The notes under the pieces: model-generated
What the model was told of the DNA's origin: nothing
What the model saw: only the letters and a program-made list of their open reading frames with translations
The model's database searches: none
IMG/VR virus record: IMGVR_UViG_3300009031_000221
Span: 352,001 to 416,000 of that record
DNA: 64,000 bases
Reading direction: 5' to 3' (one strand)
Source: a virus
Lineage: Duplodnaviria; Caudoviricetes
Made by a program: the position numbers and the translations under genes
Shown: positions 5,454 through 63,852 of the stretch, piece by piece
How positions within the stretch are numbered: position 1 is the stretch's first letter
Layout of the letters: the number at the start of each line of letters is the position of its first letter

Positions 5454-5939
5454 CTATTCTACGCAGTGGCCGCGGTAAGTAAGCTCCTTGGGCCGTTCCC
5501 ACTTGACACGCTTTTTCAATGTGTCATTCCACTGGAACCATCCCCTAGACAAATCTCCCGAACCATTGCATTCGCAGTAGGCGCATCGTTCTACCCACGG
5601 TGTCACGCACGTTCCATCCATGCGGTGGATAAGGTGCAACTCGACTGAATTTGTAGACGTATCCTTGCCAATCTGATGCTCTTTAGCTGTTATGATATTC
5701 CACTCATGGTAGTTATACCAGGGCTGTGTCCCTGCAAGGTTAGGCCGCTCGGTACCTACTATGTCTATCTGCGCTACTACGTCTTGCTGAGGTTCCCCAT
5801 AACGTGCGTAGACCATGATCGGATCCCCTACCTTGAGAGGGCATGGCGGGGCCACGTAGGACTCACAACGCTTTGCATCCTCCGGGTTGTCCCATATATG
5901 ACCGCAGGCTTCACATTGGTAGGTTGTCAGAATCTTCAT
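5454..5939 (-). CDS. hypothetical Zn-finger protein
   Basis: YQCEACGH...C and CAYCEC motifs. Confidence 0.6.
   Translation of the reverse strand: MKILTTYQCEACGHIWDNPEDAKRCESYVAPPCPLKVGDPIMVYARYGEPQQDVVAQIDIVGTERPNLAGTQPWYNYHEWNIITAKEHQIGKDTSTNSVELHLIHRMDGTCVTPWVERCAYCECNGSGDLSRGWFQWNDTLKKRVKWERPKELTYRGHCVE
5457..5483 (-). promoter_or_regulatory. conserved phage promoter-like motif, copy 1
   Basis: + strand ttctacgc-agtggccgcggt-aagtaag. Confidence 0.7.
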
Positions 5940-6094
5940 TGATCAAACCTTAGGGGTTCCCGATCTTGTCTAGCCTTGCATCCCTTCCGCCGGCACCAAC
6001 GAGTCCAAGGAGGTTTGCATTCCCTACCCCAAACCCACTCCGTCCATTTGTGAAGCCCAAATCGGCATAAGAAACTAGGGACTTCCTCGTCCAT
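5936..6094 (-). CDS. small Cys/His phage protein (52 aa, below the ORF-track cutoff)
   Basis: MDEEVPSFLCRFGLHKWTEW...RWCRRKGC; fills the gap with ATGA overlaps. Confidence 0.55.
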   Translation of the reverse strand: MDEEVPSFLCRFGLHKWTEWVWGRECKPPWTRWCRRKGCKARQDREPLRFDQ

Positions 6095-7770
6095 CATGAA
6101 CGCCTCTTCGCTAACGGCAACCAGTACGTGCCTTCACACAGGAAGGGCAACCCCGTAGTAGATGACTCCCAGCATGGCGTAGGATACCGCTTATCGGATT
6201 TCAACTGCCCGACGTGGAAGAACGGCGAGGCGTCAATGACGACCTCCACTCCCGGGGCAGGAAGTTCCTGGGTCGAATCCCGCCAACGAAGCCTATCCGC
6301 GACTTCATCCGCAAGATTTTCAACCGTATTGACTCCCGTGAATACATCCCCAGCCTTGCACCCGATCAACTCAGGCTGATCCTTATCGGTCAGGACATAG
6401 CCCAAAGCCCGACCCAGAATCTGATCTACCTCGCGAGATGATTTGAGGCACGCATCCTTCCAATGCTTGACATCGTGCATCAACTCTTGAACCTTCGTCT
6501 GAAGGCGAGAGATCTCAAATTCCGTTGCTGCATGCCCCGTGCTTCCCAATCCCTTGAACTGCTGCTCAACCGGTGGTGCCGGAACCTTCTCCGTAAATAT
6601 GCCCACGGGGTTATCCACTGAGAATGCCTGCTCAATAGCCTTAGTCGGGGATACTTCTTGCAGCCGGATACGGAAACTCGCCATGTCCTTCCAAGGGAAA
6701 TTCTTGGGATCCGTTTCATCCGTGTACGCAATCAGAACAGGCAAGCTATACAGGCTACGACTGTGATACCATGTCATCAAACTATCAAAATCATGGAAGT
6801 TGTATGTCAAACCCAAAGCCTTGAGCTTCCATTCCTTCGGTGCCGTCCAACCAATGGGTTCCGTTTCCGTAGGCTTCGTTTCCTCGGGCTCTTCCTCGAA
6901 CTGGTCCCTTTCCTTCCAGTTCTCATCGAACTCTTTCTGAGCCATTGCCTTGTTGAAAGCATCGGTAGGCGTATGCCAATATCGGAGTTGTTCACGGAAG
7001 GATTCAAAAAGCTTCCACGTCTTCCCCTGCGTATTGGACACAAGCCAATCGGACATGAGCCAAAGTGTATGCTGACTTGAGTCGTATAGCGTCATTGCAA
7101 GATCCACCCATTCCAGCATCTTGTAATGATCGGAGAAAGGCCAAGTCTCCTCATCGGAAATCTTCAGGAGCCACGGGGAGTCTAGTGGAACCGCCACGAG
7201 ATCAAACGTACCCTTCGTGAAGGTGTACGTGTCCGCAACCACATGGAACGGCTGTCCCGTAGCCACCATGACGCTATAGATGGCGTCATAGGACTTCCAA
7301 GTCTTGCCGTCATCCTTGGATACGATCCTGTTCTCCTTGTCCGTGAAAGTTCCCGCCCACGCAAGCAAATCCTTCGTGGACTTGAAGTTTATGCCGATCT
7401 GGCCGTCGTACTTCACCTTCCACTTGACCGGCTTGCCGGGGCATTCATCGGTTTCGCCATCCGGATACTCATGGCAGATCGAACACCTCCCATGAAGGTC
7501 ATCTACATCATGCTGCAACTGTGCTACGTGCTTGACCGATTCCCCAGGGCAATTCTCGTTCTCATTGGCGTCCGTCATATCCACGCCGCAGTTCCCGCAG
7601 TGATCCAGAGGTCGGCAGCATGCGGTAGCTCTATTGTGCTTCATGTTCGTTTTCCTTTCATCGTCGTCTAGGATGACACCAGCATAATCCCAATCACATA
7701 CGGTACACTTGAACTGTGCCAAGTGTATTTCTACCATCTTGGCGCCGCACTCAATGCAAAATTCCATCAT
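6094..7770 (-). CDS. multidomain hypothetical protein (Cys-rich N-terminus, three internal repeats, DUF551-like C-terminus)
   Basis: CxxC clusters; three W-x-L/V...F...L..W...(K/P)TW/PW units; W...T.ELP...VEV...YWLPL tail. Confidence 0.65.
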   Translation of the reverse strand: MMEFCIECGAKMVEIHLAQFKCTVCDWDYAGVILDDDERKTNMKHNRATACCRPLDHCGNCGVDMTDANENENCPGESVKHVAQLQHDVDDLHGRCSICHEYPDGETDECPGKPVKWKVKYDGQIGINFKSTKDLLAWAGTFTDKENRIVSKDDGKTWKSYDAIYSVMVATGQPFHVVADTYTFTKGTFDLVAVPLDSPWLLKISDEETWPFSDHYKMLEWVDLAMTLYDSSQHTLWLMSDWLVSNTQGKTWKLFESFREQLRYWHTPTDAFNKAMAQKEFDENWKERDQFEEEPEETKPTETEPIGWTAPKEWKLKALGLTYNFHDFDSLMTWYHSRSLYSLPVLIAYTDETDPKNFPWKDMASFRIRLQEVSPTKAIEQAFSVDNPVGIFTEKVPAPPVEQQFKGLGSTGHAATEFEISRLQTKVQELMHDVKHWKDACLKSSREVDQILGRALGYVLTDKDQPELIGCKAGDVFTGVNTVENLADEVADRLRWRDSTQELPAPGVEVVIDASPFFHVGQLKSDKRYPTPCWESSTTGLPFLCEGTYWLPLAKRRS

Positions 7771-8276
7771 CGATCCTTCACCAAGGTTAGGAGCTTCTTG
7801 GCGAACTTCTTCCGCAACCGAAGGTACAAGGCTTTCCCTTCCGCGATAGCCTCTACAGATTCCTTTTCGAGGGGAGGATTGTCAATCCAGTTGTTGCAAT
7901 ATCGGATTTGGTACTCAAGGCGCTTCCGGTGAATATCCGGGTCTTTCCAACCCATCATTTCATCCGTCACGCCTAGCAGGTACATACAGACGGTACCAAT
8001 ACCAGGGTCATATTGCATGACCAAGGAAGGCATATGGCTTTCACTCAGTTCAACACCCCGATCAGCCAACAACTGCTTCAGCCTATCCGCCTCGGCAAAT
8101 GCGTTGTCCTTCTTGACATCCATGAATACATTCGGAGTCTCGAGGGCGCATTCCATGAAGCATTGAACGTTCGAGATGCCATCACCTGAGTCTGTCGTGA
8201 TGAACCTATGGTCTTGCAACCAAGCCACAAGGTTTACGATTCCCGGTGTGATCTCTTTCTCAAAATCATTCATCAT
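7767..8276 (-). CDS. hypothetical protein
   Basis: Start moved to MMNDFEK, which overlaps the upstream stop and removes a 200-nt overlap. Confidence 0.6.
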   Translation of the reverse strand: MMNDFEKEITPGIVNLVAWLQDHRFITTDSGDGISNVQCFMECALETPNVFMDVKKDNAFAEADRLKQLLADRGVELSESHMPSLVMQYDPGIGTVCMYLLGVTDEMMGWKDPDIHRKRLEYQIRYCNNWIDNPPLEKESVEAIAEGKALYLRLRKKFAKKLLTLVKDR

Positions 8277-9897: not shown

Positions 9898-10515
9898 TTA
9901 CGCCAACATCTGGAATAGTTTCTCGTCGCCCTTGCAGTGATCCTTCAGACGTGCTAGCCACGCGAAGGACTTGACCTTGAACATTAGGGGCAGTCCCGTC
10001 TTCCGGTTAGCGGCACCCTTGCATACGACACCCTCGAAGGGCATACCCGGCAAGGTTCCATTACGGATGGCTGCCTCGATGTCCTTGGTGAAGTTCCCGT
10101 AGTACAGAATCTCCTGCACGGGAAGGTGCCCGAATAGCTTTTGGAACGCAGCAGGCTCGAGAAACCCCTGCTTGAACACGCTGACATCGAACAGGCGGAC
10201 TTCCTGCTTCTCGGATTCATCGTGTGTTCCTGCGAAGGACTTCGGCCCGTAGAACTCCGCGAACAAGGTGGCCTGCTGCCAACGTTCCTTCTTGAATATG
10301 ACGGGCAAGGTGTCCCCATAGCGCTCCATGAACAGGTCAGGGAATCGCTTCAGGATGGGGTTGGAATCGTCTAGTAGACCATTCCGGCGCCCCCACTTGG
10401 CGAATCCCTTCTTGGAATCATATTCAACCCGCATGCATGATCCGTCATACTTTCCGAATACATAGACGGGCACGCCGTAGTGGATCTCTGGGGAAATGGA
10501 AGGGTAGGATTTCAT
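9898..10515 (-). CDS. RNA ligase-like adenylation-domain protein
   Basis: Motif I KYDGS, motif III EFYG, IIIa FDV, IV EGVV, V FKVK. Confidence 0.75.
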   Translation of the reverse strand: MKSYPSISPEIHYGVPVYVFGKYDGSCMRVEYDSKKGFAKWGRRNGLLDDSNPILKRFPDLFMERYGDTLPVIFKKERWQQATLFAEFYGPKSFAGTHDESEKQEVRLFDVSVFKQGFLEPAAFQKLFGHLPVQEILYYGNFTKDIEAAIRNGTLPGMPFEGVVCKGAANRKTGLPLMFKVKSFAWLARLKDHCKGDEKLFQMLA

Positions 10516-10949
10516 ATGAGGTCATCAATGGGCAGGGTGTGCGTGCCCGTGGAGATTACTACCGGAGTTGCTGAGGTGAATGGAGGTGGAGCCGCCTTGA
10601 ATGGATGAAGGACGTTGACGTGATTCTTCCATGCCTTCCTTGCATATGAAGAATTGAGCGCGCTTCCCGGCAATGGGAGTTTCTCAAACCTGCCATCGGC
10701 GTCAACGATGGCTTCGATGTTTTTGTAGCAAGTGGGGCATAGATAGGCACGGCGAAGCTTGCTATAGGACAAAGCGGAACGAACAATCCCGATCGAGATC
10801 CCTTCTTTCTTGCGGCACCCGATACCGCACAACTTGCACGTTGCGAGGTTCTTGTTATTCCAAGGTGCCATGTACAGCCTGAAGGTCGTGGCAATGGCAT
10901 AGTTCGCCAGATTTTCACGCCCGATAGGTCCGACTTCCGATTGTGCCAT
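10512..10949 (-). CDS. hypothetical Zn-finger protein
   Basis: CKLCG...CPTC; start moved downstream of the promoter motif at 10973-10999. Confidence 0.55.
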   Translation of the reverse strand: MAQSEVGPIGRENLANYAIATTFRLYMAPWNNKNLATCKLCGIGCRKKEGISIGIVRSALSYSKLRRAYLCPTCYKNIEAIVDADGRFEKLPLPGSALNSSYARKAWKNHVNVLHPFKAAPPPFTSATPVVISTGTHTLPIDDLI

Positions 10950-10972: not shown

Positions 10973-10999
10973 GACTACGCAATGAGAATGGGAAGTAAG
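10973..10999 (-). promoter_or_regulatory. promoter-like motif, copy 2
   Basis: gactacgc-aatgagaatggg-aagtaag. Confidence 0.75.
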
Positions 11000-11000: not shown

Positions 11001-13514
11001 CTAGCGCTTCAAGAAACCGAGGTCATAAACACCGGGACGAAGTTTGTCCGCCAGTGCCTTGAGGGCAACCTGAAGTTCCTTCCAACCCTCGGGATCATAC
11101 TCACGGAACAAGTGCTTGAGTTGGTAGATGCCTGCATCATGGGCTGTCAAGTGGAGTTCTGGTCGTGACGTAGCAAAAGATTCCCGATGCGGCAGGGTAC
11201 CAACCAACAACGTATCAAGGATGGTCAAGCACGCCTTGGCTTCGGGTGAAAGATCCAAGGTCGGAAGGATTGTGGCCAAGTAGGAGTCTTCCGTTTCGGA
11301 CTTGGTGTCCTTGAATAGATCCCCACAACCCGGGATGTCGTATAGGGATTTGGATTCCTTCAAGGTCTTCCACCAGAAGTGGTTCTTGATCCTGTATTGC
11401 TTGCCTTTGTAGGCGACGTTTCGCATCGCAGTGCAATTGTTAGAACCGTGCATCATAGCGTAAATCACGGCATCATCGTTCCATTGGAGGTAAGCATCAG
11501 TTGTGTCAATCGGTTGGATGTATTCATCCTTGGCATTTATCCAACCCGATGTGATCAAACGCCTAGCGGCAAACAATGCCACAGGTCGCATGAATCCAGA
11601 TCCTGGTATAACTGAAAGTCCAGATCCAACTGAACTTGTCCCTGAGACAAAGCACACAAACTGTCCATTGTGTTGGACATCGTTAGCATTGTTACCAAAA
11701 TATGCCAACGCTTTCGGCACTAATGTGCCACGGCAACCAGATCCATCTTTCACAACCAACCCGCTGCTGAACTGGGGGGCATCAACACCCTTCAACCCCT
11801 TGGTTGGTTCTCGTACCCACGTGGATGCACTCATGTCGTCGGAGTTGTAGAGTGATTTAGACCCGGTATCCTCGACATTGAACCCATTGACATCTTTCAA
11901 TGTCAATTCAAGTGTTCCGTTGGGTTGTGTCCCGTTAGACCATATCGTGAATATAATGCCCCATGTGTCACTGACATCGGCAAAATGGCTGGCTTGAAAC
12001 AACATGCCTGCCTTATAGGCAAATCTCTTGTACCAGAAATCCCTGAAAGTTCTATAAGAGCCCCCACAAATAAATGTCGGGCTGCTGAATGTAGCCACGG
12101 TAACCTTCGTGAACCCATAGATTTCGGCCAAAGACGCGCATTGAAAGAAGAATTGTGCATAGAGTTCTTGGGATCCGCTGATTCCGTGGTGTCGCATGGA
12201 CGCATTGACCCGGTTTCCTGCAATTCCCGCTTTGTGGCTACCTTTCATGCCCGCGTTGTTGGCAGTCCCATAGGGCGGGTTCATCACGAACACCAACCTT
12301 TTGCCTGATTTAGCCGCCGCCCGCAACTGGTCGTCTACGGCATCGGGAATTAAGTTCTTTTCCACAAAGAATGAGGTGTCACATCCAGGATTCAGGAAGT
12401 CATAGGCGAACACGGCGGCGCCAAGGTTGTACTCTTGCTCCTTAATCACATCCACGTCAGGTTTTTCCGCTGTGCTGATAATCAGGTCTTTGAAACGGTA
12501 GTCACGAGTCAAGTTACCCGTGCCTGCTGCTGGATCCCATACGATGCAATCATCACGCCAGTTGAGCCCGAGTTCCCTGTCCAGCATGGCATGAGCTTCA
12601 TCTACCCATATAGTGGGTGTAAAGAACGCCCCCTGGCGGCGACGAGCATCCTCCTCGACTAAGCGATCCTTGGTGGCATAGAAACTTTCGATTTCTGAAG
12701 GCCTGTAACCACAAACGAAGTTTCCAATGAAACTGTTGTAGGCGTGCCCGTTGACTGGAATTTTCAGCCCTTCTACCACTAGGATGTTTTTGTTGTTTCC
12801 ATGGATTGCCACATCATCAGGTTTGAACAGGCACTTCAAGAACACGTCCACTTGTTCCACGGGAGTTAATCCGCTCCCCTTGACGAAAATATCCTTCTGC
12901 CACCGGATGAACATAGCACCAATGTTCGTCATTGTCGCTTTGACTCGATGGACCCCCCCCTTTGACAAGGTTTCAATCTTGGCTATCACTTCTTTGAAGT
13001 CCGCCGCGTCAAACACCAAGGGGGACACGTCCAGATCTTCGATTAGCGCCTTGATCAAGGCTGGGGAACCCGTTGAGGGTGCTACTGTCCAATCGATAGG
13101 CAAAGTAAGAAACCGTTGTACCGCAGCCGTTTCCAACGCGAAACACTCACTCTTGTCCCCAACGAACATGACGTTGGGCATAGGATGACCGGCAATCTCA
13201 AACTTCTTGAGGTATAGGATCAGCTGCCCTACGACACGGCAAAGGTCCTTCCGCTGCTTCAGCACTACGTCATACTTGAATTCCATCAATGCACGAACAT
13301 CCGCCCACTGAGCGTAGCCGTCCGAACCAAATGGAGATGTGATCCCCGCATCAGGACGGTAATGCATGAACTCGCCCCGATAGGCGTTCTCTACGTCCTT
13401 CTCGTTCCGTGCAGTAGCTAATAGGGATTTAGTCAGGCGGCGCATGGTGTCCTGTGGGTCATCCGTTGTGTTATCTACGCAGGAATCGGGTGAAATAAGT
13501 CCAGTAGCACTCAT
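11001..13514 (-). CDS. fused restriction endonuclease/amino-methyltransferase (type IIG-like)
   Basis: N-terminal SDGY..LMEFK and QLILY (PD-(D/E)xK + QxxxY); GAFFTP; VWDPAAGTGNL (motif I); NPPY (motif IV); long C-terminal TRD-like region. Confidence 0.8.
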   Translation of the reverse strand: MSATGLISPDSCVDNTTDDPQDTMRRLTKSLLATARNEKDVENAYRGEFMHYRPDAGITSPFGSDGYAQWADVRALMEFKYDVVLKQRKDLCRVVGQLILYLKKFEIAGHPMPNVMFVGDKSECFALETAAVQRFLTLPIDWTVAPSTGSPALIKALIEDLDVSPLVFDAADFKEVIAKIETLSKGGVHRVKATMTNIGAMFIRWQKDIFVKGSGLTPVEQVDVFLKCLFKPDDVAIHGNNKNILVVEGLKIPVNGHAYNSFIGNFVCGYRPSEIESFYATKDRLVEEDARRRQGAFFTPTIWVDEAHAMLDRELGLNWRDDCIVWDPAAGTGNLTRDYRFKDLIISTAEKPDVDVIKEQEYNLGAAVFAYDFLNPGCDTSFFVEKNLIPDAVDDQLRAAAKSGKRLVFVMNPPYGTANNAGMKGSHKAGIAGNRVNASMRHHGISGSQELYAQFFFQCASLAEIYGFTKVTVATFSSPTFICGGSYRTFRDFWYKRFAYKAGMLFQASHFADVSDTWGIIFTIWSNGTQPNGTLELTLKDVNGFNVEDTGSKSLYNSDDMSASTWVREPTKGLKGVDAPQFSSGLVVKDGSGCRGTLVPKALAYFGNNANDVQHNGQFVCFVSGTSSVGSGLSVIPGSGFMRPVALFAARRLITSGWINAKDEYIQPIDTTDAYLQWNDDAVIYAMMHGSNNCTAMRNVAYKGKQYRIKNHFWWKTLKESKSLYDIPGCGDLFKDTKSETEDSYLATILPTLDLSPEAKACLTILDTLLVGTLPHRESFATSRPELHLTAHDAGIYQLKHLFREYDPEGWKELQVALKALADKLRPGVYDLGFLKR

Positions 13515-13568
13515 CGGATACCACCATGCATGACCGGGGAGGTCTATGCAATATAGTACCCGACTTAT

Positions 13569-14348
13569 CTAGACGCAGGCATTCGCAATCGGGCTGGTAT
13601 CCGGCATATTCCATTCGTTCACGAGGGTAGCCAACTTGGCCCAGGAACGGGTGATTTGAGCTTGCCCGCCGCCCTTGGTCATGTTGAGTGCCTTTGCGGC
13701 ATCGCTATTGCTCATGCACTCCCCGGTTCCCATCAGGTGCGAGATGATGTAGTGGAGGCACCGATCCCCATCGTTGTTCAGGAGTGCCAGCACTTCCTTG
13801 CTACCCGCCGGCGTGCGGAGGATTGCCAGGAACATGTCCGTCACAAGGGGTTGATCCAAGCCCTCATCCGAGTAGACATCCGGCACCTTGCGAACGGTAT
13901 CCGTGTGGCGTTCCACCTTGATGTCATCCTTGGCCTTGCGGGTCAGGTACTTGCCAACCCAGGACTCTTCGACGAACGTGGCGGGGGTCATGCCGCACCG
14001 GATCTGTTCCTTGCGGGCGCCGCCAACCTCGTAGAAGGGGCGGGTGACTTCCTTGTCCGCATGGACAGACACGCCCATCAGGGCACGCTGCATGAGGTCA
14101 TCCGCATCCGTATGCCCCAAGGCATGCTTGCGGTAGACCTTGGCCACCGTGCGACGGGAAGCCGTGTAGACACCCTCATCCTGCGAGGAAGTCCAACCCG
14201 CATCGTAACGGGGATGGTTGTCCTGCATGAAGGACTTGGCCTGCATCAACCCCTGGGTGGGGTTAAGGTTGCTCCAGGTGCCCACGGGAACCTTGAAGGC
14301 ACCCTCGAGCACTTGCAATCGGCACATGATGTCTAGTTGGCGTCGCAT
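13569..14348 (-). CDS. ECF-sigma-factor-like protein
   Basis: DADDLMQRALM and W..KYLTRKAKDDIK resemble region 2; MSNSDAAKALNMT...ITRSWAKL resembles the region 4 HTH. Confidence 0.5.
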   Translation of the reverse strand: MRRQLDIMCRLQVLEGAFKVPVGTWSNLNPTQGLMQAKSFMQDNHPRYDAGWTSSQDEGVYTASRRTVAKVYRKHALGHTDADDLMQRALMGVSVHADKEVTRPFYEVGGARKEQIRCGMTPATFVEESWVGKYLTRKAKDDIKVERHTDTVRKVPDVYSDEGLDQPLVTDMFLAILRTPAGSKEVLALLNNDGDRCLHYIISHLMGTGECMSNSDAAKALNMTKGGGQAQITRSWAKLATLVNEWNMPDTSPIANACV

Positions 14349-14357: not shown

Positions 14358-14942
14358 TTAGCCGTTCTTGGCGGCTTTGCGCTGATTCCGAATGGCACGC
14401 CGAAAGTTCGTGTGCTTGGGAGGGGTGGGAAGGGTCACGGCCTTCTCGAAGCAATCGTCACAATGGCAAGGCGTGGAGTACACACCGGGAGTGAACATGC
14501 CGTGAATCGCCTGCTTCAAGCGTTGCACGTCCTTGCGGCTGAAGCCCCAGTAGGGCTTCACATCGGTGATGCACTTGGGGGTATAGGGCGTCCGCAACGC
14601 CTTATCCTTGAAGTACTTGCTGAAGGGGCTCAAGTCCGCCGGATCCTCGAAGATGGGATAACGGCGCATTTCCTCTCGGTAATGGCGGCGATTCATTTCA
14701 TCCAGCATGTCATCCATCATCTGCTGTTCGGGGGACTTGGGACGATTGCGACGAATCGGCCCCGTGACCTCGCCAACGAAGACCGCATCCGGCCACAGGT
14801 AGCCCGCAGTCGTGGGGTCGGGATCGTCAAGCGCTCCAGTGATCTCGATTTCCCCGCCATCCGGCTTCCGCCAAATGTGCGTGCCGTAGATGGCAGCCGC
14901 CTTCTCACTGAACATCCCAAACCTGCTGAATTCGATGGTCAT
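14358..14942 (-). CDS. hypothetical protein
   Basis: Start moved to MTIEFS (GGAG SD). Confidence 0.55.
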   Translation of the reverse strand: MTIEFSRFGMFSEKAAAIYGTHIWRKPDGGEIEITGALDDPDPTTAGYLWPDAVFVGEVTGPIRRNRPKSPEQQMMDDMLDEMNRRHYREEMRRYPIFEDPADLSPFSKYFKDKALRTPYTPKCITDVKPYWGFSRKDVQRLKQAIHGMFTPGVYSTPCHCDDCFEKAVTLPTPPKHTNFRRAIRNQRKAAKNG

Positions 14943-14967
14943 TGCCTTTGCTCCTTCAATGTGTGGG

Positions 14968-15105
14968 TTAGCGGGACTGCAACCAGTACGAGAAGTCCAA
15001 TGCACGCCAGAACACGCCGCACAACAGGACGACCACGGTAGCGCCCAACAGCACCCACACAGCCTTCCAAAATCGCTTCTCGATCTTACGCCACAAGTTC
15101 TTCAT
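14968..15105 (-). CDS. small membrane protein (45 aa)
   Basis: MKNLWRKIEKRFWKAVWVLLGATVVVLLCGVFW...; first ORF after promoter copy 3. Confidence 0.55.
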   Translation of the reverse strand: MKNLWRKIEKRFWKAVWVLLGATVVVLLCGVFWRALDFSYWLQSR

Positions 15106-15141
15106 CGTTCGTTCCTTCGTGGGCATCCTGCCCTACCTTCT

Positions 15142-15180
15142 ATCTACGCTGTCATTCCGAAAAGTAAGCCTTCAAGCTAC
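15142..15180 (-). repeat. 39-bp direct repeat, copy A (contains promoter motif copy 3)
   Basis: atctacgctgtcattccgaaaagtaagccttcaagctac; 35/39 identical to 15645-15683. Confidence 0.9.
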
Positions 15181-15617
15181 ACTTTCACGTTGCCGAATGT
15201 TTGCTTCATCAATGCAAGGACTTCCCTGGCATACCAGGTTGAACCCTTGGCGGAACCGCTATACAGGCGGAGCGCTTCTTTCATGTCCCCGTGTGCCGCC
15301 CTTCGCTTGTCATCCAGGATGCGAGCCGCAGCCCACACTCCGGCGGAACCCTTCAGCATTTTGCAGGTGTTGCCTTCCGCCCACTTCGGATTCACTTGCC
15401 ATGGGCCACAATGACCGGAGGCATTGACCTTTGGGCGGATGTTGGTTTCGCGACGGGCGATTGCCATGAGCAAGGGTGCGGGAAAGCCATAGGCATCCGC
15501 CGCAATGTCCGTGGGCGTGGCCACAGCACAACCACGAAGAACCTCACCGCCGGGGATGGTGGGGTCACTTGCAAGGGCGAGGCAAAGGAGGAATGCGGGT
15601 GTCATCGTAGGTTCCAA
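15177..15617 (-). CDS. lytic transglycosylase (SLT domain) with signal peptide
   Basis: LLMAIARRETN (catalytic E), GPWQVN, AL.LYSG...Y...VL. Confidence 0.8.
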   Translation of the reverse strand: MEPTMTPAFLLCLALASDPTIPGGEVLRGCAVATPTDIAADAYGFPAPLLMAIARRETNIRPKVNASGHCGPWQVNPKWAEGNTCKMLKGSAGVWAAARILDDKRRAAHGDMKEALRLYSGSAKGSTWYAREVLALMKQTFGNVKV

Positions 15618-15644: not shown

Positions 15645-15683
15645 ATCTACGCTGTCATCATGGAAAGTAAGCCTTCAAGCTAC
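15645..15683 (-). repeat. 39-bp direct repeat, copy B (contains promoter motif copy 4)
   Basis: atctacgctgtcatcatggaaagtaagccttcaagctac. Confidence 0.9.
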
Positions 15684-16381
15684 GCCAACCTATCGTAATC
15701 AGGAGATTGGAAGTAGGATTCGAACAGTTCCTTCAGCTTACGGAACCGTACCTCATTTCCGCCACGATCCGGGTGGTTCGCATGGATCATAGCGTGGTAG
15801 ACCTTCTTGGCATCCTTCTTAGTAGCTACCTTGCTCAAGTCATAGCCCTGCTTGGCAAGGGTCGCAACATCAAGACGAACCTTTGGTTTGAATTCAGGGG
15901 ACTTAGGAGTGCTATCGTAGGATCGATGAGCATTGTTGGGATGATTCGCGTAGTAATCATGGAGTTTTTCAGCGGCAGCTCTTGTTCCCGCCGCCCCATA
16001 GTCAGCATACGCCTTTCTCCCTGAAGCGGCAGCAAATGCATCGGCGGCAGCTTTTCTCTCCGCCGCAGACCTTGCTACAGCATTTGACGCAGCCCGTTGT
16101 CTACGCAGCAATTCTTCAAAATACGCATGTTGCCGGCGCAGTTGTTCAATTCGGGCATCCCGTGCCTCGGATCGGGCATTCGATTGACGACGTGCATCAT
16201 GTTCAAGGAGCATGAACAGGAGCCAAATAGCAATGCCGATTCCCGCTCCAATGATCGGCCACTTGGCGATAGGCCAATCGATCTCGTAGCCTGTGAGGTC
16301 GAGGAAAACAGGGATGCAAACAATCGCAGCCGCAAGGGCGCATGCTAGGATGGTTATCAGGCTTTGACTGTCATTCTTCAT
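15680..16381 (-). CDS. membrane-anchored DnaJ-domain protein
   Basis: Two N-terminal TM segments, coiled coil, C-terminal AKKVYHAMIHANHPDRGG J-domain (HPD). Confidence 0.8.
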   Translation of the reverse strand: MKNDSQSLITILACALAAAIVCIPVFLDLTGYEIDWPIAKWPIIGAGIGIAIWLLFMLLEHDARRQSNARSEARDARIEQLRRQHAYFEELLRRQRAASNAVARSAAERKAAADAFAAASGRKAYADYGAAGTRAAAEKLHDYYANHPNNAHRSYDSTPKSPEFKPKVRLDVATLAKQGYDLSKVATKKDAKKVYHAMIHANHPDRGGNEVRFRKLKELFESYFQSPDYDRLA

Positions 16382-16417: not shown

Positions 16418-16444
16418 GTCTACGCTGCTGCATCGAAAAGTAAG
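16418..16444 (-). promoter_or_regulatory. promoter-like motif, copy 5
   Basis: gtctacgc-tgctgcatcgaa-aagtaag. Confidence 0.75.
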
Positions 16445-17014: not shown

Positions 17015-17245
17015 CTACAGAGAAATGGGCATGCCCGTAGAACTGAACACCATCGGGGAAGGCACAAGCATGTATGCGTCGGGATGGAAGTCCTTATCGA
17101 ATCCATCCAAACGGGATCCCCGTTTGGTGTCCAACCAAGCAGCCGCATCCTGAATCGTAGCGAAGTCGGGCTGGAGTTCCATCTCGTACCAGGCATAGCC
17201 ATGCCCTGTCGATTTTCCTGCGAACCAAGAGTACTTTCGTGCCAT
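17015..17245 (-). CDS. hypothetical protein
   Basis: First ORF after promoter copy 6; GAGGAG SD. Confidence 0.6.
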   Translation of the reverse strand: MARKYSWFAGKSTGHGYAWYEMELQPDFATIQDAAAWLDTKRGSRLDGFDKDFHPDAYMLVPSPMVFSSTGMPISL

Positions 17246-17270: not shown

Positions 17271-17297
17271 ATCTACGCGATAGGCAATAGAAGTAAG
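17271..17297 (-). promoter_or_regulatory. promoter-like motif, copy 6
   Basis: atctacgc-gataggcaatag-aagtaag. Confidence 0.75.
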
Positions 17298-28066: not shown

Positions 28067-28384
28067 TTAGACCTCTACGGGGATGGTGTCAGTAGGCCCG
28101 CCGCACTTCGGGCATGTAAGATCTGCCTTGGGGTGTACAGCGGGATCGAGATTGTCATTCCAAGAGCAACGGGCATTCGAGTTGACGGCAACGGTGATAT
28201 GAACACATGCCCCACGCTGCTTGAAGTAGCGGCATGCACATGTCCATCCGTATTGAACACGCTGCCGGTTGAGTTCCGCACCGGACAAGTGTCCATACTG
28301 GACGGTATACTTCTCCCCGTCCTCATCTGGAATGATGGTTTGCCAATGGATGTTGGCATGGCATGTCCTAGCAATCTCAGCCAT
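28067..28384 (-). CDS. SWIM zinc-finger protein
   Basis: WTCACRYFKQRGACVHI plus CPKCG; start moved to MAEIA. Confidence 0.7.
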   Translation of the reverse strand: MAEIARTCHANIHWQTIIPDEDGEKYTVQYGHLSGAELNRQRVQYGWTCACRYFKQRGACVHITVAVNSNARCSWNDNLDPAVHPKADLTCPKCGGPTDTIPVEV

Positions 28385-28623: not shown

Positions 28624-28650
28624 ATCTACGCGATCCAAGATAGAAGTAAG
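28624..28650 (-). promoter_or_regulatory. promoter-like motif, copy 7
   Basis: atctacgc-gatccaagatag-aagtaag. Confidence 0.75.
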
Positions 28651-38709: not shown

Positions 38710-38750
38710 CGTCAGTTCCTATCTAGGGATCATTCGTCCCCACGCGAAGT

Positions 38751-39920: not shown

Positions 39921-39955
39921 GGAAGTTCCTTTGTAGGGATCCTCGTCCCTACTTT

Positions 39956-39982
39956 ATCTACGCTGCTAGGGACGAAAGTAAG
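39956..39982 (-). promoter_or_regulatory. promoter-like motif, copy 11
   Basis: atctacgc-tgctagggacga-aagtaag. Confidence 0.75.
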
Positions 39983-41681: not shown

Positions 41682-41708
41682 ATCTACGCCGATTACGCTA
41701 GAAGTAAG
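41682..41708 (-). promoter_or_regulatory. promoter-like motif, copy 12
   Basis: atctacgc-cgattacgctag-aagtaag. Confidence 0.75.
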
Positions 41709-47061: not shown

Positions 47062-47088
47062 ACCTACGCGAATAAGGGTAGAAGTAAG
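47062..47088 (-). promoter_or_regulatory. promoter-like motif, copy 13
   Basis: acctacgc-gaataagggtag-aagtaag. Confidence 0.72.
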
Positions 47089-50313: not shown

Positions 50314-50340
50314 ATCTACGCAATGGAAGGGGGAAGTAAG
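50314..50340 (-). promoter_or_regulatory. promoter-like motif, copy 14
   Basis: atctacgc-aatggaaggggg-aagtaag. Confidence 0.75.
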
Positions 50341-52203: not shown

Positions 52204-52830
52204 CTAATGGCCGAAGAACTTGATGAGCGCCTTGTAGCGCTCCACAGCGGTAGAAATCGTCTGACGAACACCATCCGCCCGAAGATTCACCGCTTTTGCC
52301 TGCTCCTCGGCCGCCTGTTTGGCTGCCGCCGTATCCTGAACAGCGCCCTCACGGCGCGCCTTCAAGGATGCGATTTGTGCATCAAGATCCACAATGAGGG
52401 CATCCAACTCCGCCTTCCGGGAATCGAATGCCACATTGAGCGCCTTGACACGATCCGCCTCGTCCGATGCGACGAGACCCGTGTACTTATCGAGGATTGC
52501 GACGCGCCGATTGGCGTCCGCCATGACGTGTTCCTCGTCCCAGGTGTTATCCACCGCATCCATTGCCCGCACCATCGCCAACTGCTGCTCCGGGGAGAAT
52601 GGAGCGAGGCTAGCACGCAAAGTGATGACGGTTTCCGCCGAGTTACGCCCGGCTTCCGCACCACCCGCGGCAAGGATCTCCTCCAAAGTCCAATCCAAAG
52701 GCGTCCGCTTGACAGCGGTAGCCGCAGGAGCGGGAGCATCCCCAGTCGGGGCCTCGGGCGCCTCCGGAGCTTCCGATGTAGCGGAATCCGTTGCTGGTGT
52801 AATGGTTACAAGTTTGTCCCAAAAAGCCAT
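52204..52830 (-). CDS. coiled-coil protein (ABC-module associated)
   Basis: A/P-rich linker then long heptad-like helices; start moved to MAFWD (GAGG SD). Confidence 0.7.
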   Translation of the reverse strand: MAFWDKLVTITPATDSATSEAPEAPEAPTGDAPAPAATAVKRTPLDWTLEEILAAGGAEAGRNSAETVITLRASLAPFSPEQQLAMVRAMDAVDNTWDEEHVMADANRRVAILDKYTGLVASDEADRVKALNVAFDSRKAELDALIVDLDAQIASLKARREGAVQDTAAAKQAAEEQAKAVNLRADGVRQTISTAVERYKALIKFFGH

Positions 52831-52884
52831 GTGAACCTCATAAGGATACGTTAGGTCCTTCCCGTACATGGGATGACCCGTCCT

Positions 52885-52911
52885 ATCTACGCAACGATGA
52901 TGAAAAGTAAG
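52885..52911 (-). promoter_or_regulatory. promoter-like motif, copy 15
   Basis: atctacgc-aacgatgatgaa-aagtaag. Confidence 0.75.
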
Positions 52912-55843: not shown

Positions 55844-56553
55844 GCCACCACCATGCAAGTAGGTTTGATGCCAAAGGTATTGTGCGACCACCAATGCTCC
55901 AGGCCACTTTGGACAACCAGCATCGTGACCTGATAGGCCAGGATGGACATCCATGGGACGAACCCAAGCAATGCGAACAGAGCCGTGGTCATGACGAAAG
56001 CCGACACGCCTCGATAGGTCAAGGTCTTGAGGATGATACGCTTATGTGCGACATGATCCGAATCGTCGATCCCGTAGTTCGAATCGTGCCAAATCCGCTC
56101 ATGGACGAACCCGAATGCCGCCATCAGCAAGGCATATCCGGTCAGCATCCACAGGCCAAGCCCAAGGCTATGCAGCACCAACCAAAAGCAAGCGAGGCTA
56201 CTGATGCGGTAGCTGAATACCTTGAACATGGAACGCCATGATGTGGAATGCGCCGAACGATCGGGTTCCCACGGCTCCCGCCCCTTGTAGCGATCCCATG
56301 TCCTGAATGCCCACAGGAGAACGGGGTAGACGATCGGCTCGAAGTGGAATATGAGGAACAGCGGAATCAGTTGCGGGGCGCCCATCTTCCATGAGATCAG
56401 GGGCAGGATAATGTCCTCGATGCACTCCCAGATCACGGCAGCGATCACGAACCGACGACCGTACTTCTTCCCCAGGCCCTTGATCTCACGCCATGTTCCC
56501 ATGACGTTGATCTTTTCCCAGGCCTCTTCCGCAGCCCATTTCAGGATGTTCAT
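55840..56553 (-). CDS. membrane protein with tandem DUF2061-like repeats
   Basis: RSMFK.FSYR..S...HERIWH / RIILKTLTYR..S...EHWW. Confidence 0.7.
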   Translation of the reverse strand: MNILKWAAEEAWEKINVMGTWREIKGLGKKYGRRFVIAAVIWECIEDIILPLISWKMGAPQLIPLFLIFHFEPIVYPVLLWAFRTWDRYKGREPWEPDRSAHSTSWRSMFKVFSYRISSLACFWLVLHSLGLGLWMLTGYALLMAAFGFVHERIWHDSNYGIDDSDHVAHKRIILKTLTYRGVSAFVMTTALFALLGFVPWMSILAYQVTMLVVQSGLEHWWSHNTFGIKPTCMVVA

Positions 56554-56780
56554 GACTTGATCCCCCGATCCAACCATGCCTGGGTATGTGCATGTCGCTC
56601 TGCCCGGGTTGTTGGGGGGTGCTTGTATTGCATATCCGCATGGTGGGTCCACAAGGCCCACACGATCTTGTTGGCTCGATTCTCCACGAAGCGCTTCACG
56701 TGATGAATGCCCCGGAGGTAGTAATGCCAGAACTTCCGATTCAGATACGGCAAGTCCTTCGGCCCGTCATGTTGTTCCAT
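56550..56780 (-). CDS. hypothetical protein
   Basis: First gene after promoter copy 16. Confidence 0.5.
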   Translation of the reverse strand: MEQHDGPKDLPYLNRKFWHYYLRGIHHVKRFVENRANKIVWALWTHHADMQYKHPPTTRAERHAHTQAWLDRGIKS

Positions 56781-56815
56781 GGTAGTTCCTTAGGCATCAT
56801 CTGTGCCCGTAGATT

Positions 56816-56842
56816 AGCTACGCTGATTATGTGGAAAGTAAG
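56816..56842 (-). promoter_or_regulatory. promoter-like motif, copy 16
   Basis: agctacgc-tgattatgtgga-aagtaag. Confidence 0.72.
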
Positions 56843-56844: not shown

Positions 56845-57318
56845 TTAGAGATTTGCAACCAAGTACTTCAACACGTATTCAGTGACATACTGTTGAACGG
56901 CTACCCGATCAAGACCTTCGGGGACGGAGACAAGCCCTCCATCAACGTAGCCCGCATTGTCAGCAATGGCGAAGTAGGCAAAGGGTTCCTTGATATTTCC
57001 ATCCGGCCAGAGTTCCGCATAGCCCGTGGTAGCAACGCCAATGTCCGAATCGAACAACTCGCGAACGCCCATAGCCATTTGCGATGCAACCCCCAAGGAA
57101 ACGCAGTTGCATATCTTGGCGTCTTCCTCATTGACCCAGAGCAGCTTGACCTTTGCTTCCAGGCAGTAGGCAGTCACGCCTCCACGGAAGTAGGCGGATG
57201 ACCCGGACACGGAGGAGAAAGCAGCCTGGAGGTTGCCCGCGGTGATGCTCTCCGCCACGGCGATAGTGATGCCGTTGGGCTTGAGCCTTTGACCGATGGT
57301 TGCAGCGTATTCGTTCAT
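56845..57318 (-). CDS. pncC: CinA/PncC NMN deamidase
   Basis: IAVAESITAG, GSSAYFRGG..AY...K, VS...A..MA.G, ATTGYA. Confidence 0.88.
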   Translation of the reverse strand: MNEYAATIGQRLKPNGITIAVAESITAGNLQAAFSSVSGSSAYFRGGVTAYCLEAKVKLLWVNEEDAKICNCVSLGVASQMAMGVRELFDSDIGVATTGYAELWPDGNIKEPFAYFAIADNAGYVDGGLVSVPEGLDRVAVQQYVTEYVLKYLVANL

Positions 57319-57343: not shown

Positions 57344-57370
57344 GACTACGCCCTACGGAGTAGAAGTAAG
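57344..57370 (-). promoter_or_regulatory. promoter-like motif, copy 17
   Basis: gactacgc-cctacggagtag-aagtaag. Confidence 0.72.
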
Positions 57371-59632: not shown

Positions 59633-59821
59633 TTAATGACCCCAGGTGAACGTGGAAGGGAAGGGTGCCTTGCAAGCCGTGATGCAGGTAGCATCCGTGC
59701 CGCACTTGTCGATGCATTGCTGCATCATCTTGTCCTGGTCACACCCGCGACCGAGGACGCAAAGCCCGAGGATTAGGATGACAATGAACGCGCCTTTGGC
59801 GATTTCAAGAATGTGGGGCAT
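59633..59821 (-). CDS. small membrane protein with four-Cys C-terminus
   Basis: TM then CIDKC....CITAC; start moved to MPHIL. Confidence 0.6.
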   Translation of the reverse strand: MPHILEIAKGAFIVILILGLCVLGRGCDQDKMMQQCIDKCGTDATCITACKAPFPSTFTWGH

Positions 59822-60048
59822 TACTTGCTCGCCTTGGGGTCGAAGTGCGGGCGATGGCACTTGACGCAGAGGTGGTTGCCATCGGGGGAGAAGCGAAGGG
59901 TGTGGCCTTCCTCGCACTGGATGTTCAGGCGGATGACCTGGAGGTTCCGCATCGTCCGCAGCTTCTCGCTCAGGGAGAGCGGCTGGCGCAGCTTGGCCGG
60001 CAGGGTGCGGGAGAGAACCTTGGCACGATTGAAAGCATTGAGCGTCAT
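59821..60048 (-). CDS. small Zn-ribbon protein
   Basis: CEEGH...CVKC; first gene after promoter copy 18. Confidence 0.55.
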   Translation of the reverse strand: MTLNAFNRAKVLSRTLPAKLRQPLSLSEKLRTMRNLQVIRLNIQCEEGHTLRFSPDGNHLCVKCHRPHFDPKASK

Positions 60049-60094
60049 GGTGTCCGATTCCTTGAGGGCTGGTTGTTCGCGTGCCCTACCCCCT

Positions 60095-60121
60095 ATCTAC
60101 GCTGAACCTTAGGAAAGTAAG
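60095..60121 (-). promoter_or_regulatory. promoter-like motif, copy 18
   Basis: atctacgc-tgaaccttagga-aagtaag. Confidence 0.75.
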
Positions 60122-61038
60122 TCCCGATGGCAGCCCCTTGTGACGATTGGCACCATATCCAAGGGACTAAAACGACTTCCCCTGGAACGGTCGCTTCCGC
60201 CGATAGTCGGCCCGCAACCCCAATGGACGCCTCCGCCTTCCGTTTCATTGGCCTCATCGCACACGCCTTGCACGCTAAACGGCACGCCCTCGGAAAGGCG
60301 CTGAACCGTGTACGTCCAGTTGCCATCGTCCCGCTGACGGGCAAGCAGCCATGCCGTGTGGCCATTGTTGACCATCTTCATGCGGGCACGGTAGCCAATC
60401 TCTTCCGCGATGATCCAACCCTCCCCATGTGCCAGGATGTTGTACCGGTCATCCGCCTTGCACTTGCCGCCACGTCCCATCAGGTGCTGGCGAATCCGCA
60501 GCCCCGAGTCCGTCATGATGCGAAGGTAATCCTCGGGGTCCTTGCGATCCAACGTACCGTCCAATCGGGCGATGAAGTAGGGTTCGAAGCACCAATCGTA
60601 GGTTTCCAGGTCCATGTCCATGGGGAACGGATACGTGCCGCCCGTCGTATCCAAGTAGTCACACATCTGGATCAGGCGATTCAGTTGCGGATTGACAACG
60701 CTGACTACCTCAGCCATGTTCTCCAGCAGCCATACCGCCAACCGCACGTCAGGATCTACGTCATTGACGTAGACGTGCATGGCACGATCACCCTTGTCAT
60801 CAACCCAGGAATCGAACACGTGCATGCGAATGGCAAGCGCCACCTGTGCAGCCGTCGCACGAGTAGCAAGACGGTTGACGCCAACGTGGTGGTCGAAGTT
60901 GGCCCATCCAGCAGGATCGAAGATGGGTGCCGCGTCGCAGTATCCATCAATGGCTACGGAACCCTTGGGGTGCGTAGCCTTGAACTCCGGGAAGGTCATG
61001 GGCTTGGTATGCGGGCATGCGTGCAGATAGACTCTCAT
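60109..61038 (-). CDS. DHH-family phosphoesterase-like protein
   Basis: IDG, NFDHH, NDVDPD motifs; WGCG..IGGS. Confidence 0.65.
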   Translation of the reverse strand: MRVYLHACPHTKPMTFPEFKATHPKGSVAIDGYCDAAPIFDPAGWANFDHHVGVNRLATRATAAQVALAIRMHVFDSWVDDKGDRAMHVYVNDVDPDVRLAVWLLENMAEVVSVVNPQLNRLIQMCDYLDTTGGTYPFPMDMDLETYDWCFEPYFIARLDGTLDRKDPEDYLRIMTDSGLRIRQHLMGRGGKCKADDRYNILAHGEGWIIAEEIGYRARMKMVNNGHTAWLLARQRDDGNWTYTVQRLSEGVPFSVQGVCDEANETEGGGVHWGCGPTIGGSDRSRGSRFSPLDMVPIVTRGCHRDLLS

Positions 61039-61105: not shown

Positions 61106-61132
61106 ATCTACGCTAGATTTGCGAGAAGTAAG
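61106..61132 (-). promoter_or_regulatory. promoter-like motif, copy 19
   Basis: atctacgc-tagatttgcgag-aagtaag. Confidence 0.75.
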
Positions 61133-62425: not shown

Positions 62426-63199
62426 CTATTCCTCCCAGATCTTTGCGAATTGTTCCGGCGTCCAGCCTACGATGTCTGATACCTGTCCGTCCCCGATCTC
62501 CACAACCACAGGTACTTGAGCCCCGTCCATCGACATTGCAATGTCAATGGAATAGAACAAGGCCGGGATTAGTTTAGCTACGTCGTGGGCAAGGGCGACA
62601 TAGGATACATCGCTGAACGAATGGACATGGTGGTGAACTTTGCCGTTCAGGACAAAGAACCGTAGCTCATGGTTCGTTGGGACGAACCGGCGTACGCACA
62701 GTCCCCCCTCGATATGCCCACGAAACTTCACCATCTCCGCTACGATGTCAGGTGCCTGATCCGGTCGACTCACAACGGATCCCAAGGCAGACTTGTTGGA
62801 CTTTACGTAGTCCTTGATGAATACCCAACCCCAATCCAACTTGGTGATTTCGGCTTCAATGTCGCAACCCTTAGGGAAGAACGCGGTTTCAGGCGTCAAT
62901 CCTTTGAGGTAGGGATACCAGTTCGGCAGATGATGGCACGATAGGTAATCAAGCATGGACGTGAATGGATGACCGCCAGCGGCGTAGATCGCATCGCACA
63001 GCCTGCCATACGTAGTGGCATCCATCATCCAACCACGGTAGACAACCTTGTGCCCTACAAGGGAATCCCCTGTGATTTTATTCTCGTTGATAATGGCACA
63101 CGGATGCCCGGCAGCCTTCAACGCGGCGTACTGGTCGGCGAAGGCCTCATCAACCTTGCTGGTTAGCATGGACTTGGGGAATAGGAATGCGTAGCTCAT
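62426..63199 (-). CDS. ATP-grasp domain protein (R2K-like)
   Basis: FIKDYVKS, ELRFFVL.G, FYSIDIA, VVEIGDGQVS. Confidence 0.78.
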   Translation of the reverse strand: MSYAFLFPKSMLTSKVDEAFADQYAALKAAGHPCAIINENKITGDSLVGHKVVYRGWMMDATTYGRLCDAIYAAGGHPFTSMLDYLSCHHLPNWYPYLKGLTPETAFFPKGCDIEAEITKLDWGWVFIKDYVKSNKSALGSVVSRPDQAPDIVAEMVKFRGHIEGGLCVRRFVPTNHELRFFVLNGKVHHHVHSFSDVSYVALAHDVAKLIPALFYSIDIAMSMDGAQVPVVVEIGDGQVSDIVGWTPEQFAKIWEE

Positions 63200-63807
63200 T
63201 TGTAGGCCCCCTGCAATACGGCAAACAAACGCTCGATCTCAAGGTGGGTCTCAAGGAGGGTGCCACGGTTGTCGATGAAGAATGTCGCATATTTCATGCG
63301 TTCCTCGTTGGACATTTGGGCGTGGATACGTTGCAGGGCGGCTTCCCTATTCAAACCGTTACGTGCCATGAGCCGCTGGATCTGCGTTTCCACTTCGCAT
63401 TTGATGACAATCACGAATTCGCAAAGGTTCTCTGCCTGACCGGACTCAACCAGCATTGCATTGTCAATGATGATGATGGGCACGTTGTCTTGTTGTGCTT
63501 CCTGAATCTTGGATTGCGTGATCGCATCAATGTGCGGATGCAGGATTTCCTCGAGCACTCGCATCGAACGGGGATCCGCGAATACCACAGCGCCCAGTTT
63601 GGATCGATTCAGGGTGCCATCAGGCAGGAGGTATTCCCGTCCGAAGGCCTCAATGACACCCTCAAGGCCTGGGGTGCCAAGTTTGACAGCTTCCCTGGCT
63701 ACGAGGTCCATGTCGATGATGCGTACACCGGGCTTCGTCGCAAGGATCGAAGACACGTAGGACTTCCCACTCGCGATGCCGCCTGTTAGACCGATGATGA
63801 CACTCAT
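63196..63807 (-). CDS. coaE: dephospho-CoA kinase
   Basis: IIGLTGGIASGKS, ID.D..AR, LNR.KLG..VF, LE.I.HP, R...Q. Confidence 0.95.
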   Translation of the reverse strand: MSVIIGLTGGIASGKSYVSSILATKPGVRIIDMDLVAREAVKLGTPGLEGVIEAFGREYLLPDGTLNRSKLGAVVFADPRSMRVLEEILHPHIDAITQSKIQEAQQDNVPIIIIDNAMLVESGQAENLCEFVIVIKCEVETQIQRLMARNGLNREAALQRIHAQMSNEERMKYATFFIDNRGTLLETHLEIERLFAVLQGAYK

Positions 63808-63825
63808 AGCATGACCTCCGGATGA

Positions 63826-63852
63826 ATCTACGCGGGGAATGCTAGAAGTAAG
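63826..63852 (-). promoter_or_regulatory. promoter-like motif, copy 20
   Basis: atctacgc-ggggaatgctag-aagtaag. Confidence 0.75.

Follow-up and report, generated by a model that had tools for sequence, protein, structure and literature searches.

Private promoters for phage-encoded sigma factors are a textbook phage strategy, and the closest experimentally defined case to the element described here is that of Salmonella phage 7-11, whose sigma factor gp47 reads eight bipartite late promoters of the form GTAAtg-N16-aCTA (Lavysh et al. 2022, PMC8948821). Between phage 7-11 and the related coliphage phiEco32 (gp36 system) the promoter sequences differ while the genome positions are kept (PMC8948821; prediction approach, PMC4331800). 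Here we describe a bipartite element, CTTACTT-N12-GCGTAG, that recurs throughout a 64,000-nucleotide stretch of viral DNA (Duplodnaviria; Caudoviricetes), hereafter the window, which comprises bases 352,001-416,000 of the IMG/VR record IMGVR_UViG_3300009031_000221 (536,053 bp in total, GC 52%, 100% complete by CheckV). The element is in all probability a promoter, and we put the probability that it is a phage-specific promoter read through a phage-encoded sigma factor at about 0.68. As in 7-11 and phiEco32, a phage sigma-like subunit is predicted to act on the host core polymerase at a private bipartite promoter whose sequence diverges between relatives, and the GTAAC -35 box of one relative (G004, described below) resembles the GTAAtg of 7-11. 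In contrast to the eight promoters of late genes in 7-11, a phage with a genome of less than 100 kb, the present element occurs in ~128 copies with 13 invariant bases in a 536-kb genome, stands before accessory genes and tRNA genes, and is absent from the stretch that holds the portal, terminase and protease genes. The novelty lies mainly in this copy number and strictness.

Several other described systems share part of this arrangement. Bacterial promoters of the extracytoplasmic function (ECF, group 4) type are represented by that of Bacillus subtilis SigW, TGAAAC-N16-CGTA, and in the cascade of Bacillus phage SPO1 (gp28, gp33/34) phage sigmas replace the host sigma and read phage-specific two-box promoters. 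The present genome has several sigma-like genes, and one of these belongs to the regulon itself, which hints at a cascade here as well, whereas the sequences of this phage are unrelated to those of SPO1 and its promoters are more numerous by an order of magnitude. The stoperators of cluster A mycobacteriophages have an orientation bias in common with our element, but they are single asymmetric repressor sites of 13-17 bp, whereas the element is bipartite with a free 12-nt spacer. T4-type phages carry PeSL cassettes, which combine a sigma-70-like early promoter with a terminator stem-loop (Arbiol et al. 2010, PMC2839356; PMC4122927). Like these, the present element provides many near-identical copies of promoter and stem-loop packed between small ORFan genes of a variable genome; unlike them, its promoter is not sigma-70-like, and its hairpin is a leader structure with a conserved loop and no U-tract. 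A survey of huge phages notes phage-encoded sigma-70 and anti-sigma-like genes, and the searched passages of its main text describe no promoter class (PMC7162821).

The strictness of the element is its most conspicuous property. In the window, CTACGC-N12-AAGTAAG matches exactly 20 times, always on the plus strand (that is, CTTACTT-N12-GCGTAG on the minus strand), with 0.00 matches expected from shuffles, and exact copies in the whole genome number 118, of which 87 are on the minus strand and 31 on the plus strand. With the spacer held at 12 nt there are 10 extra copies with one mismatch, five of them reading CTTACTA, and the two-mismatch count equals background. Spacers of 11 or 13 nt gave no genome copy with 0-1 mismatch, and an excess of two-mismatch matches at spacers of 8 and 16 nt was discarded as an artefact of ACTTACTT periodicity inside true copies. 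Outside the motif the heptamer CTTACTT occurs only 17 times genome-wide, counting both strands. Conservation extends beyond the 13 invariant bases to the consensus G-R-CTTACTT-Y-Y-N8-(C)-(A/T)-GCGTAG-A-T-R, and a pyrimidine-purine step is conserved 7-8 nt downstream of GCGTAG. This -10 box is invariant and has a CGT-type core as in ECF promoters. Across flanks and spacer, identity stays below 75% for all pairs of copies, which argues against recent duplication of a promoter cassette, and no homology between copies was found outside the ~27-bp core. Five copies with unrelated flanks (genome 38075, 441941, 444325, 492483 and 494694) have the identical 12-nt spacer TTCCCATCGACA, which may have arisen by short-patch gene conversion or because the copies converged on an optimal spacer. 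Elsewhere in IMG/VR, a strict 17-base version of the motif matched just two single sites, which were taken as chance, and no DNA similarity to deposited phages was found for window positions 11001-14348.

The position of the copies relative to genes is equally regular. Genes were called with a crude codon-usage caller, which gave 730 open reading frames (ORFs) genome-wide, and for 95 of the 118 exact copies a co-oriented start codon follows within 100 nt, at a median of 41 nt from the end of the motif; most of the others precede RNA genes or small ORFs missed by the caller. In 97 of the 118 cases the end of an ORF of 45 codons or more falls into the interval from 35 nt before to 22 nt after the start of the motif, with a peak 3-11 nt before it. 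Five back-to-back divergent pairs of copies stand exactly at strand switches (218.1, 441.5, 477.8, 483.9 and 502.8 kb). The RNA genes of the genome comprise 67 tRNA genes and one transfer-messenger RNA (tmRNA), and co-oriented tRNA genes follow three of the motif copies at 39, 83 and 139 nt; since tRNA genes are headed too, the motif acts on transcription and not on translation. No copy occurs in the ~43 kb between genome positions 131.6 and 175 kb, where the portal, large terminase and head protease genes lie, or in the long stretch at 176-208 kb, which contains genes for ribonucleotide reductase and a helicase/exonuclease; ribonucleotide reductase and helicase are thus among the genes without the motif, besides those for head and packaging functions. 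ARAGORN also reported a tRNA with anticodon TTA (ochre suppressor type) at genome 483,473-483,562 on the minus strand, 295 nt downstream of a motif copy, and placed the phage tmRNA, with tag ANDNVEFTSFAAAA, at 225,791-226,190 on the minus strand.

A first-pass annotation of the window had already recognized the element, and most of its proposals agree with these counts. It had listed 20 invariant copies in one orientation, and these were recovered with none on the opposite window strand, its start positions being 2 nt lower than ours because a 27-bp unit had been counted. The location at or overlapping the upstream stop codon that it described holds for most copies genome-wide, and the placement before minus-strand gene starts holds in the crude calls for 19 of the 20 window copies, at distances of 7-82 nt, the twentieth (60097) preceding an ORF of 75 aa. 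A single promoter class, as had been suggested, fits elements that are co-oriented with the downstream unit at ~40 nt from the starts, precede tRNA genes, form divergent pairs and have homologous versions in relatives. Genome-wide the copies follow gene direction and do not fall in gene interiors and on both strands alike, as a methylase site would. The comparison of the CGTA -10 core with ECF promoters is also consistent with a phage that encodes sigma-like proteins and in which no RNA polymerase gene was found. The early or middle timing ascribed to the regulon is one that we can only infer, and the label of a virion cluster for window positions 1354-4028 was not confirmed, three of the ORFs there having no PHROG match.

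Relatives of the phage carry the same architecture with diverged boxes. Dozens of related IMG/VR contigs were collected by a portal search and a sigma C search (sigma C is introduced below). None of them carries the identical motif, and a loose pattern, TTNC-N15-CGTAG, was not enriched in five relatives; as fixed patterns gave no enrichment, two-box combinations were counted de novo for each relative. Each relative examined has a two-box version of its own, arranged in the same way and co-oriented with an ATG and its Shine-Dalgarno sequence. In G001 (IMGVR_UViG_3300028840_001395; 436 kb, GC 62%, portal 70% identical), 400 kb contain 34 copies of GGK-CTTATYT-N12-GAGTAG-TCT, and the box positions, CTTAT-N14-GAGTAG, are identical to CTTAC-N14-GCGTAG of the present phage. 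RG-GTAAC-N14/15-(G)AGTAG occurs in 51 copies in 220 kb of G004 (IMGVR_UViG_3300028422_000919) and GGGG-GTTCC-N15-CCGTA-RRGAG in 26 copies in 180 kb of G005 (..3300007513_000007). Two 21-kb segments gave seven copies of G-GATCATCT-N12/13-GAGTAG (..3300023257_000008) and four of GGTTG-N17-CCGTAT (..3300046167_000825), and GATCA-N15/16-GAGTAG is a further box version listed among the related megaphages. Across the clade the -10 core is stable (GTAG or CGTA) and the -35 box variable. Because relatives keep the layout with boxes of their own, the element is a regulatory signal that is conserved, and evolving, within this megaphage clade.

Two other repeated arrangements were also observed. At 81.9-82.8 kb of G004 (loci L106-L107), ~14 alternately oriented promoter copies form an array of divergent pairs that recur about every 125 bp and leave no room for ORFs, and may represent a series of genes for small RNAs or a repeat rich in promoters; the array adjoins the sigma C orthologue of G004 and a P0001-like gene (P0001 is described below). 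The second, at locus L062 (IMGVR_UViG_3300012953_000012), is a ~40-bp repeat, TACTTACGGAAGC-N-TTTTAACG, which occurs in inverted pairs (2911, 3824 and 19442 on the plus strand; 3917 and 19589 on the minus strand) and has no relation to the promoter family.

The favoured candidate for the reader of the element is sigma C, an ECF-like protein of 308 aa encoded at genome 305,990-306,916, 45 kb before the window. The NCBIfam sigma70-ECF model (TIGR02937) matches it over model positions 17-161 of 165 (E 8e-6), and a profile built from 15 members of its family matches sigma-H (PDB 3mzy) over regions 2-4 (E 0.0045). When its AlphaFold model (predicted local distance difference test, pLDDT, 74) was compared by Foldseek, sigma factors alone made up the top matches, with the ECF sigmas H, E and L in front at probabilities of 0.95-0.98. 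Sigma-2 and sigma-4 domains are both present according to the profile and structure-model matches, and the Pfam region 2 score is 13.3 bits compared with a cut-off of 24. A sigma C orthologue is encoded in all six other records with a characterised promoter, at 36-43% identity in G001, G004 and G005. Within the 15-sequence family, region 2 (…DPEDVLQE.YKG…SSFGHYVHMV…NYHR…) is nearly invariant while the recognition helix of region 4 varies between phages, a pattern that parallels the two promoter boxes, of which the -10 keeps its core and the -35 varies. The full motif is absent upstream of sigma C; the gene is instead preceded by a sigma-70-like sequence, TTGACT-N17-TACTAC, possibly an early promoter read by the host, and this fits a gene that the host holoenzyme must express first. 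A lone GACTTACTT half-site (CTTACTT) at genome 307,092 on the minus strand, ~176 nt upstream of the sigma C start, overlaps the TTGACT-N17-TACTAC sequence. We give sigma C an even chance of being the reader of the motif.

Under the reading that we prefer, CTTACTT-N12-GCGTAG would form the core sequence of a promoter specific to the phage, its -35 box being of the ECF type and its -10 box of the CGTA type, and would head ~128 transcription units of tRNA arrays, accessory genes, ORFans and some genes of metabolism. It would most likely be read by the host RNA polymerase core together with a phage ECF-like sigma factor, of which sigma C is the best candidate; region 4 of sigma C would then contact CTTAC(TT) and region 2 (G)CGTAG. 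Transcription is predicted to start ~7-8 nt downstream, at the conserved pyrimidine-purine step. In ~30% of units the transcript would open with a hairpin carrying a C-R-R-A-Y-G-A loop, followed by the ribosome-binding site, and this hairpin would probably constitute a second control point, acting via a binding protein or through the stability of the 5' end. The resemblance to ECF systems consists of the two boxes, the CGTA -10 core, the tight spacing and the domain composition of sigma C with its nearest structures; the differences are a CTTAC(TT) -35 box without AAC, a distance of 15 nt to CGTA, and a sigma C that scores below family cut-offs and carries an extension. No anti-sigma partner for sigma C was identified.

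A number of observations weigh against this reading. The -35 box CTTACTT does not contain the AAC typical of ECF promoters, GTAAC in G004 being the only such case among the relatives, and the distance from the -35 box to CGTA is 1-2 nt below that of usual ECF consensus promoters. Sigma C reaches 25.5 bits where the curated family cut-off is 42.9, its Foldseek E-values are only ~4e-3 with low TM-scores, and it carries an N-terminal extension of 110 residues. The genome encodes at least three further sigma-like proteins (P0001 and proteins at 161.8 kb and 194 kb), any of which is possibly the reader, and a phage RNA polymerase as divergent as those of the phiKZ type could go unrecognized by Pfam models. 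DNA of the record was found in four DNA sequencing runs of one groundwater study and, with a small share, in one sediment run, and a run search found no RNA run carrying phage sequence; the start sites and the dependence on a sigma factor are therefore predicted ones.

The first of these other proteins, P0001 (window 13569-14348, minus strand), had been proposed as the reader by the first-pass annotation, a proposal that the present results do not favour. P0001 is a helical protein with a confident model (pLDDT 88), of which residues 175-247 superpose on the -35-binding domain of the ECF sigma CnrH (Z 7.6, root-mean-square deviation 2.2 A over 63 residues) and also on SigW and SigK; its Foldseek matches are weak and nearly all to sigma factors. 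Only this C-terminal domain is sigma-4-like. The N-terminal domain has weak region-2 matches alone (E 0.03), and in a profile-profile comparison with the sigma C family the helix-turn-helix aligns by itself (52 columns), region 2 of sigma C remaining unaligned. An exhaustive search found 105 remote homologues, mostly over the N-terminal 150 residues, where a word-index search had found P0001 alone, and no informative Pfam family was found in the 38 homologues that were aligned and scanned. In G001 and G004, which keep the promoter, P0001 is poorly conserved, with matches of 26-31% to the N-terminal half. It is, moreover, the third gene behind motif copy 15144, which makes it a member of the regulon, and as the reader it would depend on something else to be expressed for the first time. 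It may, speculatively, be a later sigma factor of a cascade.

The second, a 201-aa protein at genome 161,786-162,391 on the minus strand, contains two sigma-70 region-4 domains that pass the curated cut-offs, and at 71% identity it is the best conserved sigma-like protein in G001, whose promoter is almost the same; it has no region 2, and could be a co-factor or a split sigma. The third, of 378 aa (194,060-195,196), has a weak match to region 4 only. Sigma C is the clearest candidate, and we regard it as unlikely that one of these three proteins reads the promoter in its place. Two further region-4 matches were set aside as not representing sigma factors. A 316-aa product at window 43181-44131, minus strand, has a weak Sigma70_r4_2 match in its N-terminal helix-turn-helix, appears by eye to be of the LAGLIDADG type and is probably a homing endonuclease, and an ORF near 497.3 kb appears excisionase-like by eye.

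The remaining explanations dispense with a phage sigma factor or with a promoter. That the phage borrows a host regulon, the motif being read by an alternative (ECF) sigma of the host, has in its favour that a CGTA-type -10 box and a two-box geometry are typical of bacterial ECF promoters. The invariance of 13 positions over 118 copies is, however, far stricter than in usual bacterial ECF regulons; the strict pattern has just the two single matches in all of IMG/VR outside this genome, and all relatives examined keep a sigma C orthologue alongside diverged boxes of their own, so that we consider a host reader improbable. More improbable still is a promoter of a phage-encoded non-canonical RNA polymerase, comparable to the early promoters of phiKZ-like or N4-like phages. 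Promoters of phage polymerases are likewise numerous and near-invariant, and divergent polymerases can evade family models; the failure to find a T7-type polymerase domain in the genome is uninformative and carries no weight, as that model matched none of 14 control genomes. Against a hidden polymerase, no Rpb1 or Rpb2 domain was found in the genome with models that match 14 of 14 controls, and two boxes separated by a free 12-nt spacer fit two sigma domains and not a single-subunit polymerase.

An oriented site that is not a promoter, such as a stoperator-like repressor site, a recombination or cassette boundary, or a bipartite methylase target, could account for copies that are biased in orientation, lie in short gaps right after stop codons, flank ORFan genes and in five cases share a 12-nt spacer. 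The copies nonetheless stand where promoters are required, as divergent pairs at strand switches and before tRNA arrays, and no other conserved candidate promoter was noticed in the motif gaps. A methylase target would be expected inside genes and on both strands regardless of gene direction, a pattern that was not seen, and recent cassette transfer is hard to reconcile with homology that stops at the ~27-bp core. As regards shuffling of the PeSL type, no pair of copies reaches the 75% level, five copies share one spacer, and the relatives are too diverged for mapping of breakpoints. We hold any of these non-promoter sites to be very improbable, and retain the promoter read through a phage-encoded sigma factor.

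In addition to the boxes, a subset of copies has a hairpin in the predicted leader. It was found downstream of 38 of 123 copies (the 118 exact ones and the five reading CTTACTA), or ~30%, and in 31 of the 38 it starts 8-10 nt after GCGTAG. Its form is a stem of 4-9 bp with a loop containing A-Y-G-A, most often the 7-nt loop C-R-R-A-Y-G-A. Genome-wide there are 39 strict hairpins, of which 21 lie at most 40 nt downstream of a promoter copy and 20 of those at the 8-10-nt offset. The stems covary (for example GGGCA/TGCCC, AGGGGA/TCTCCT and CGCCCA/TGGGTG) and contain G-T pairs on the sense strand only, which favours a structure formed in the RNA over an operator in the DNA. Taken together, the leaders form better folds than segments drawn at random from the genome (mean z -0.79 vs -0.11, p 6e-8); at five window copies the hairpin is the minimum-energy fold, with modest single z-scores of +0.15 to -2.3, and the case for the hairpin is made by the whole set, the fixed offset and the covariation rather than by single stabilities. 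The absence of a U-tract indicates that the hairpin is no terminator. The same loops, CAAATGA and CGGATGA, recur in hairpins behind two promoters of the relative ..3300023257_000008. If transcription starts ~7-8 nt past GCGTAG, the hairpin would lie at the extreme 5' end of the mRNA, where it could protect the end or bind a regulator. A fuller, two-layer regulon, in which a sigma factor of the clade fires the ~128 promoters, the hairpin docks an RNA-binding regulator (an N/boxB-like antiterminator, or a translational or stability factor) and P0001 switches on the next promoter class, is a scenario that we consider doubtful; if true, it would amount to a complete host-independent expression programme in an uncultivated megaphage clade.

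The 20 copies in the window, all on the minus strand, are located as follows, with distances given from the motif to the start of the downstream ORF in the crude calls. The first two, at 5459-5483 and 10975-10999, lie 31 nt before ORF 4861-5427 and 25 nt before ORF 10512-10949. The copy at 15144-15168 heads the unit 14968-15126, 14358-15005 and 13569-14348, the last being P0001, and has a leader hairpin at 15121-15133. Copies follow at 15647-15671 (41 nt before ORF 15177-15605), 16420-16444 (38 nt before 15680-16381), 17273-17297 (27 nt before 17015-17245) and 28626-28650 (18 nt before 28377-28607). The next four copies all have leader hairpins: 36272-36296, 45 nt before ORF 35753-36226 (hairpin 36240-36261); 37469-37493, 40 nt before 37177-37428 (hairpin 37442-37458, stem GGGCA/TGCCT, loop CGAACGA); 38753-38777, 43 nt before 38362-38709 (hairpin 38724-38742, loop CGAATGA); and 39958-39982, 37 nt before 39714-39920 (hairpin 39933-39952). 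The copy at 41684-41708 lies 82 nt before ORF 40924-41601, and ORF 46061-47056 is called from a start 7 nt past the copy at 47064-47088, with a true start that may be further downstream. Those at 50316-50340 and 52887-52911 precede ORF 49210-50283 (DUF4419) by 32 nt and ORF 52204-52869 by 17 nt. The copy at 56818-56842 is 37 nt before ORF 56550-56780, with a hairpin at 56792-56808 (loop CAGATGA), and that at 57346-57370 is 27 nt before ORF 56845-57318 (CinA family). The copy at 60097-60121, with a hairpin at 60065-60087, lies 48 nt before the 75-aa ORF 59821-60048, which was missed by the gene caller. The last two, at 61108-61132 and 63828-63852, are 69 nt before ORF 60109-61038 and 20 nt before ORF 63196-63807, which encodes dephospho-CoA kinase (CoaE). 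CinA, CoaE and DUF4419 are the only Pfam families among the first genes behind these copies, the other 17 of 20 having none.

A second candidate promoter class, TCGGTAG-N6/7-(T/G)AT(A/C), often with GGTAGG ~12-15 nt further on, was observed in the same genome. It gave 17 hits, 16 of them intergenic and 13 at most 150 nt before a co-oriented start. Sites lie on the minus strand at genome 51939, 101840, 115344, 161760, 189416, 201712, 207891, 449089, 488894, 508359 and 529797 and on the plus strand at 381885 (window 29885). The genes behind this class include ribonucleotide reductase and several proteins of >700 aa without the main motif.

Phage sigma factors with private promoters are already known, and the present findings involve no change of principle. 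What the motif provides is a map of ~128 transcription units in an uncultivated 536-kb phage, with a comparable number in its relatives, and such a map helps with the annotation of tRNA arrays, non-coding RNAs and ORFan genes in their hundreds. The conserved hairpin of the leaders offers an entry point to a possible further level of regulation. The clade as a whole offers matched pairs of sigma factor and promoter, with one -10 core and diverging -35 boxes, for the study of region 4 specificity and as orthogonal expression parts.

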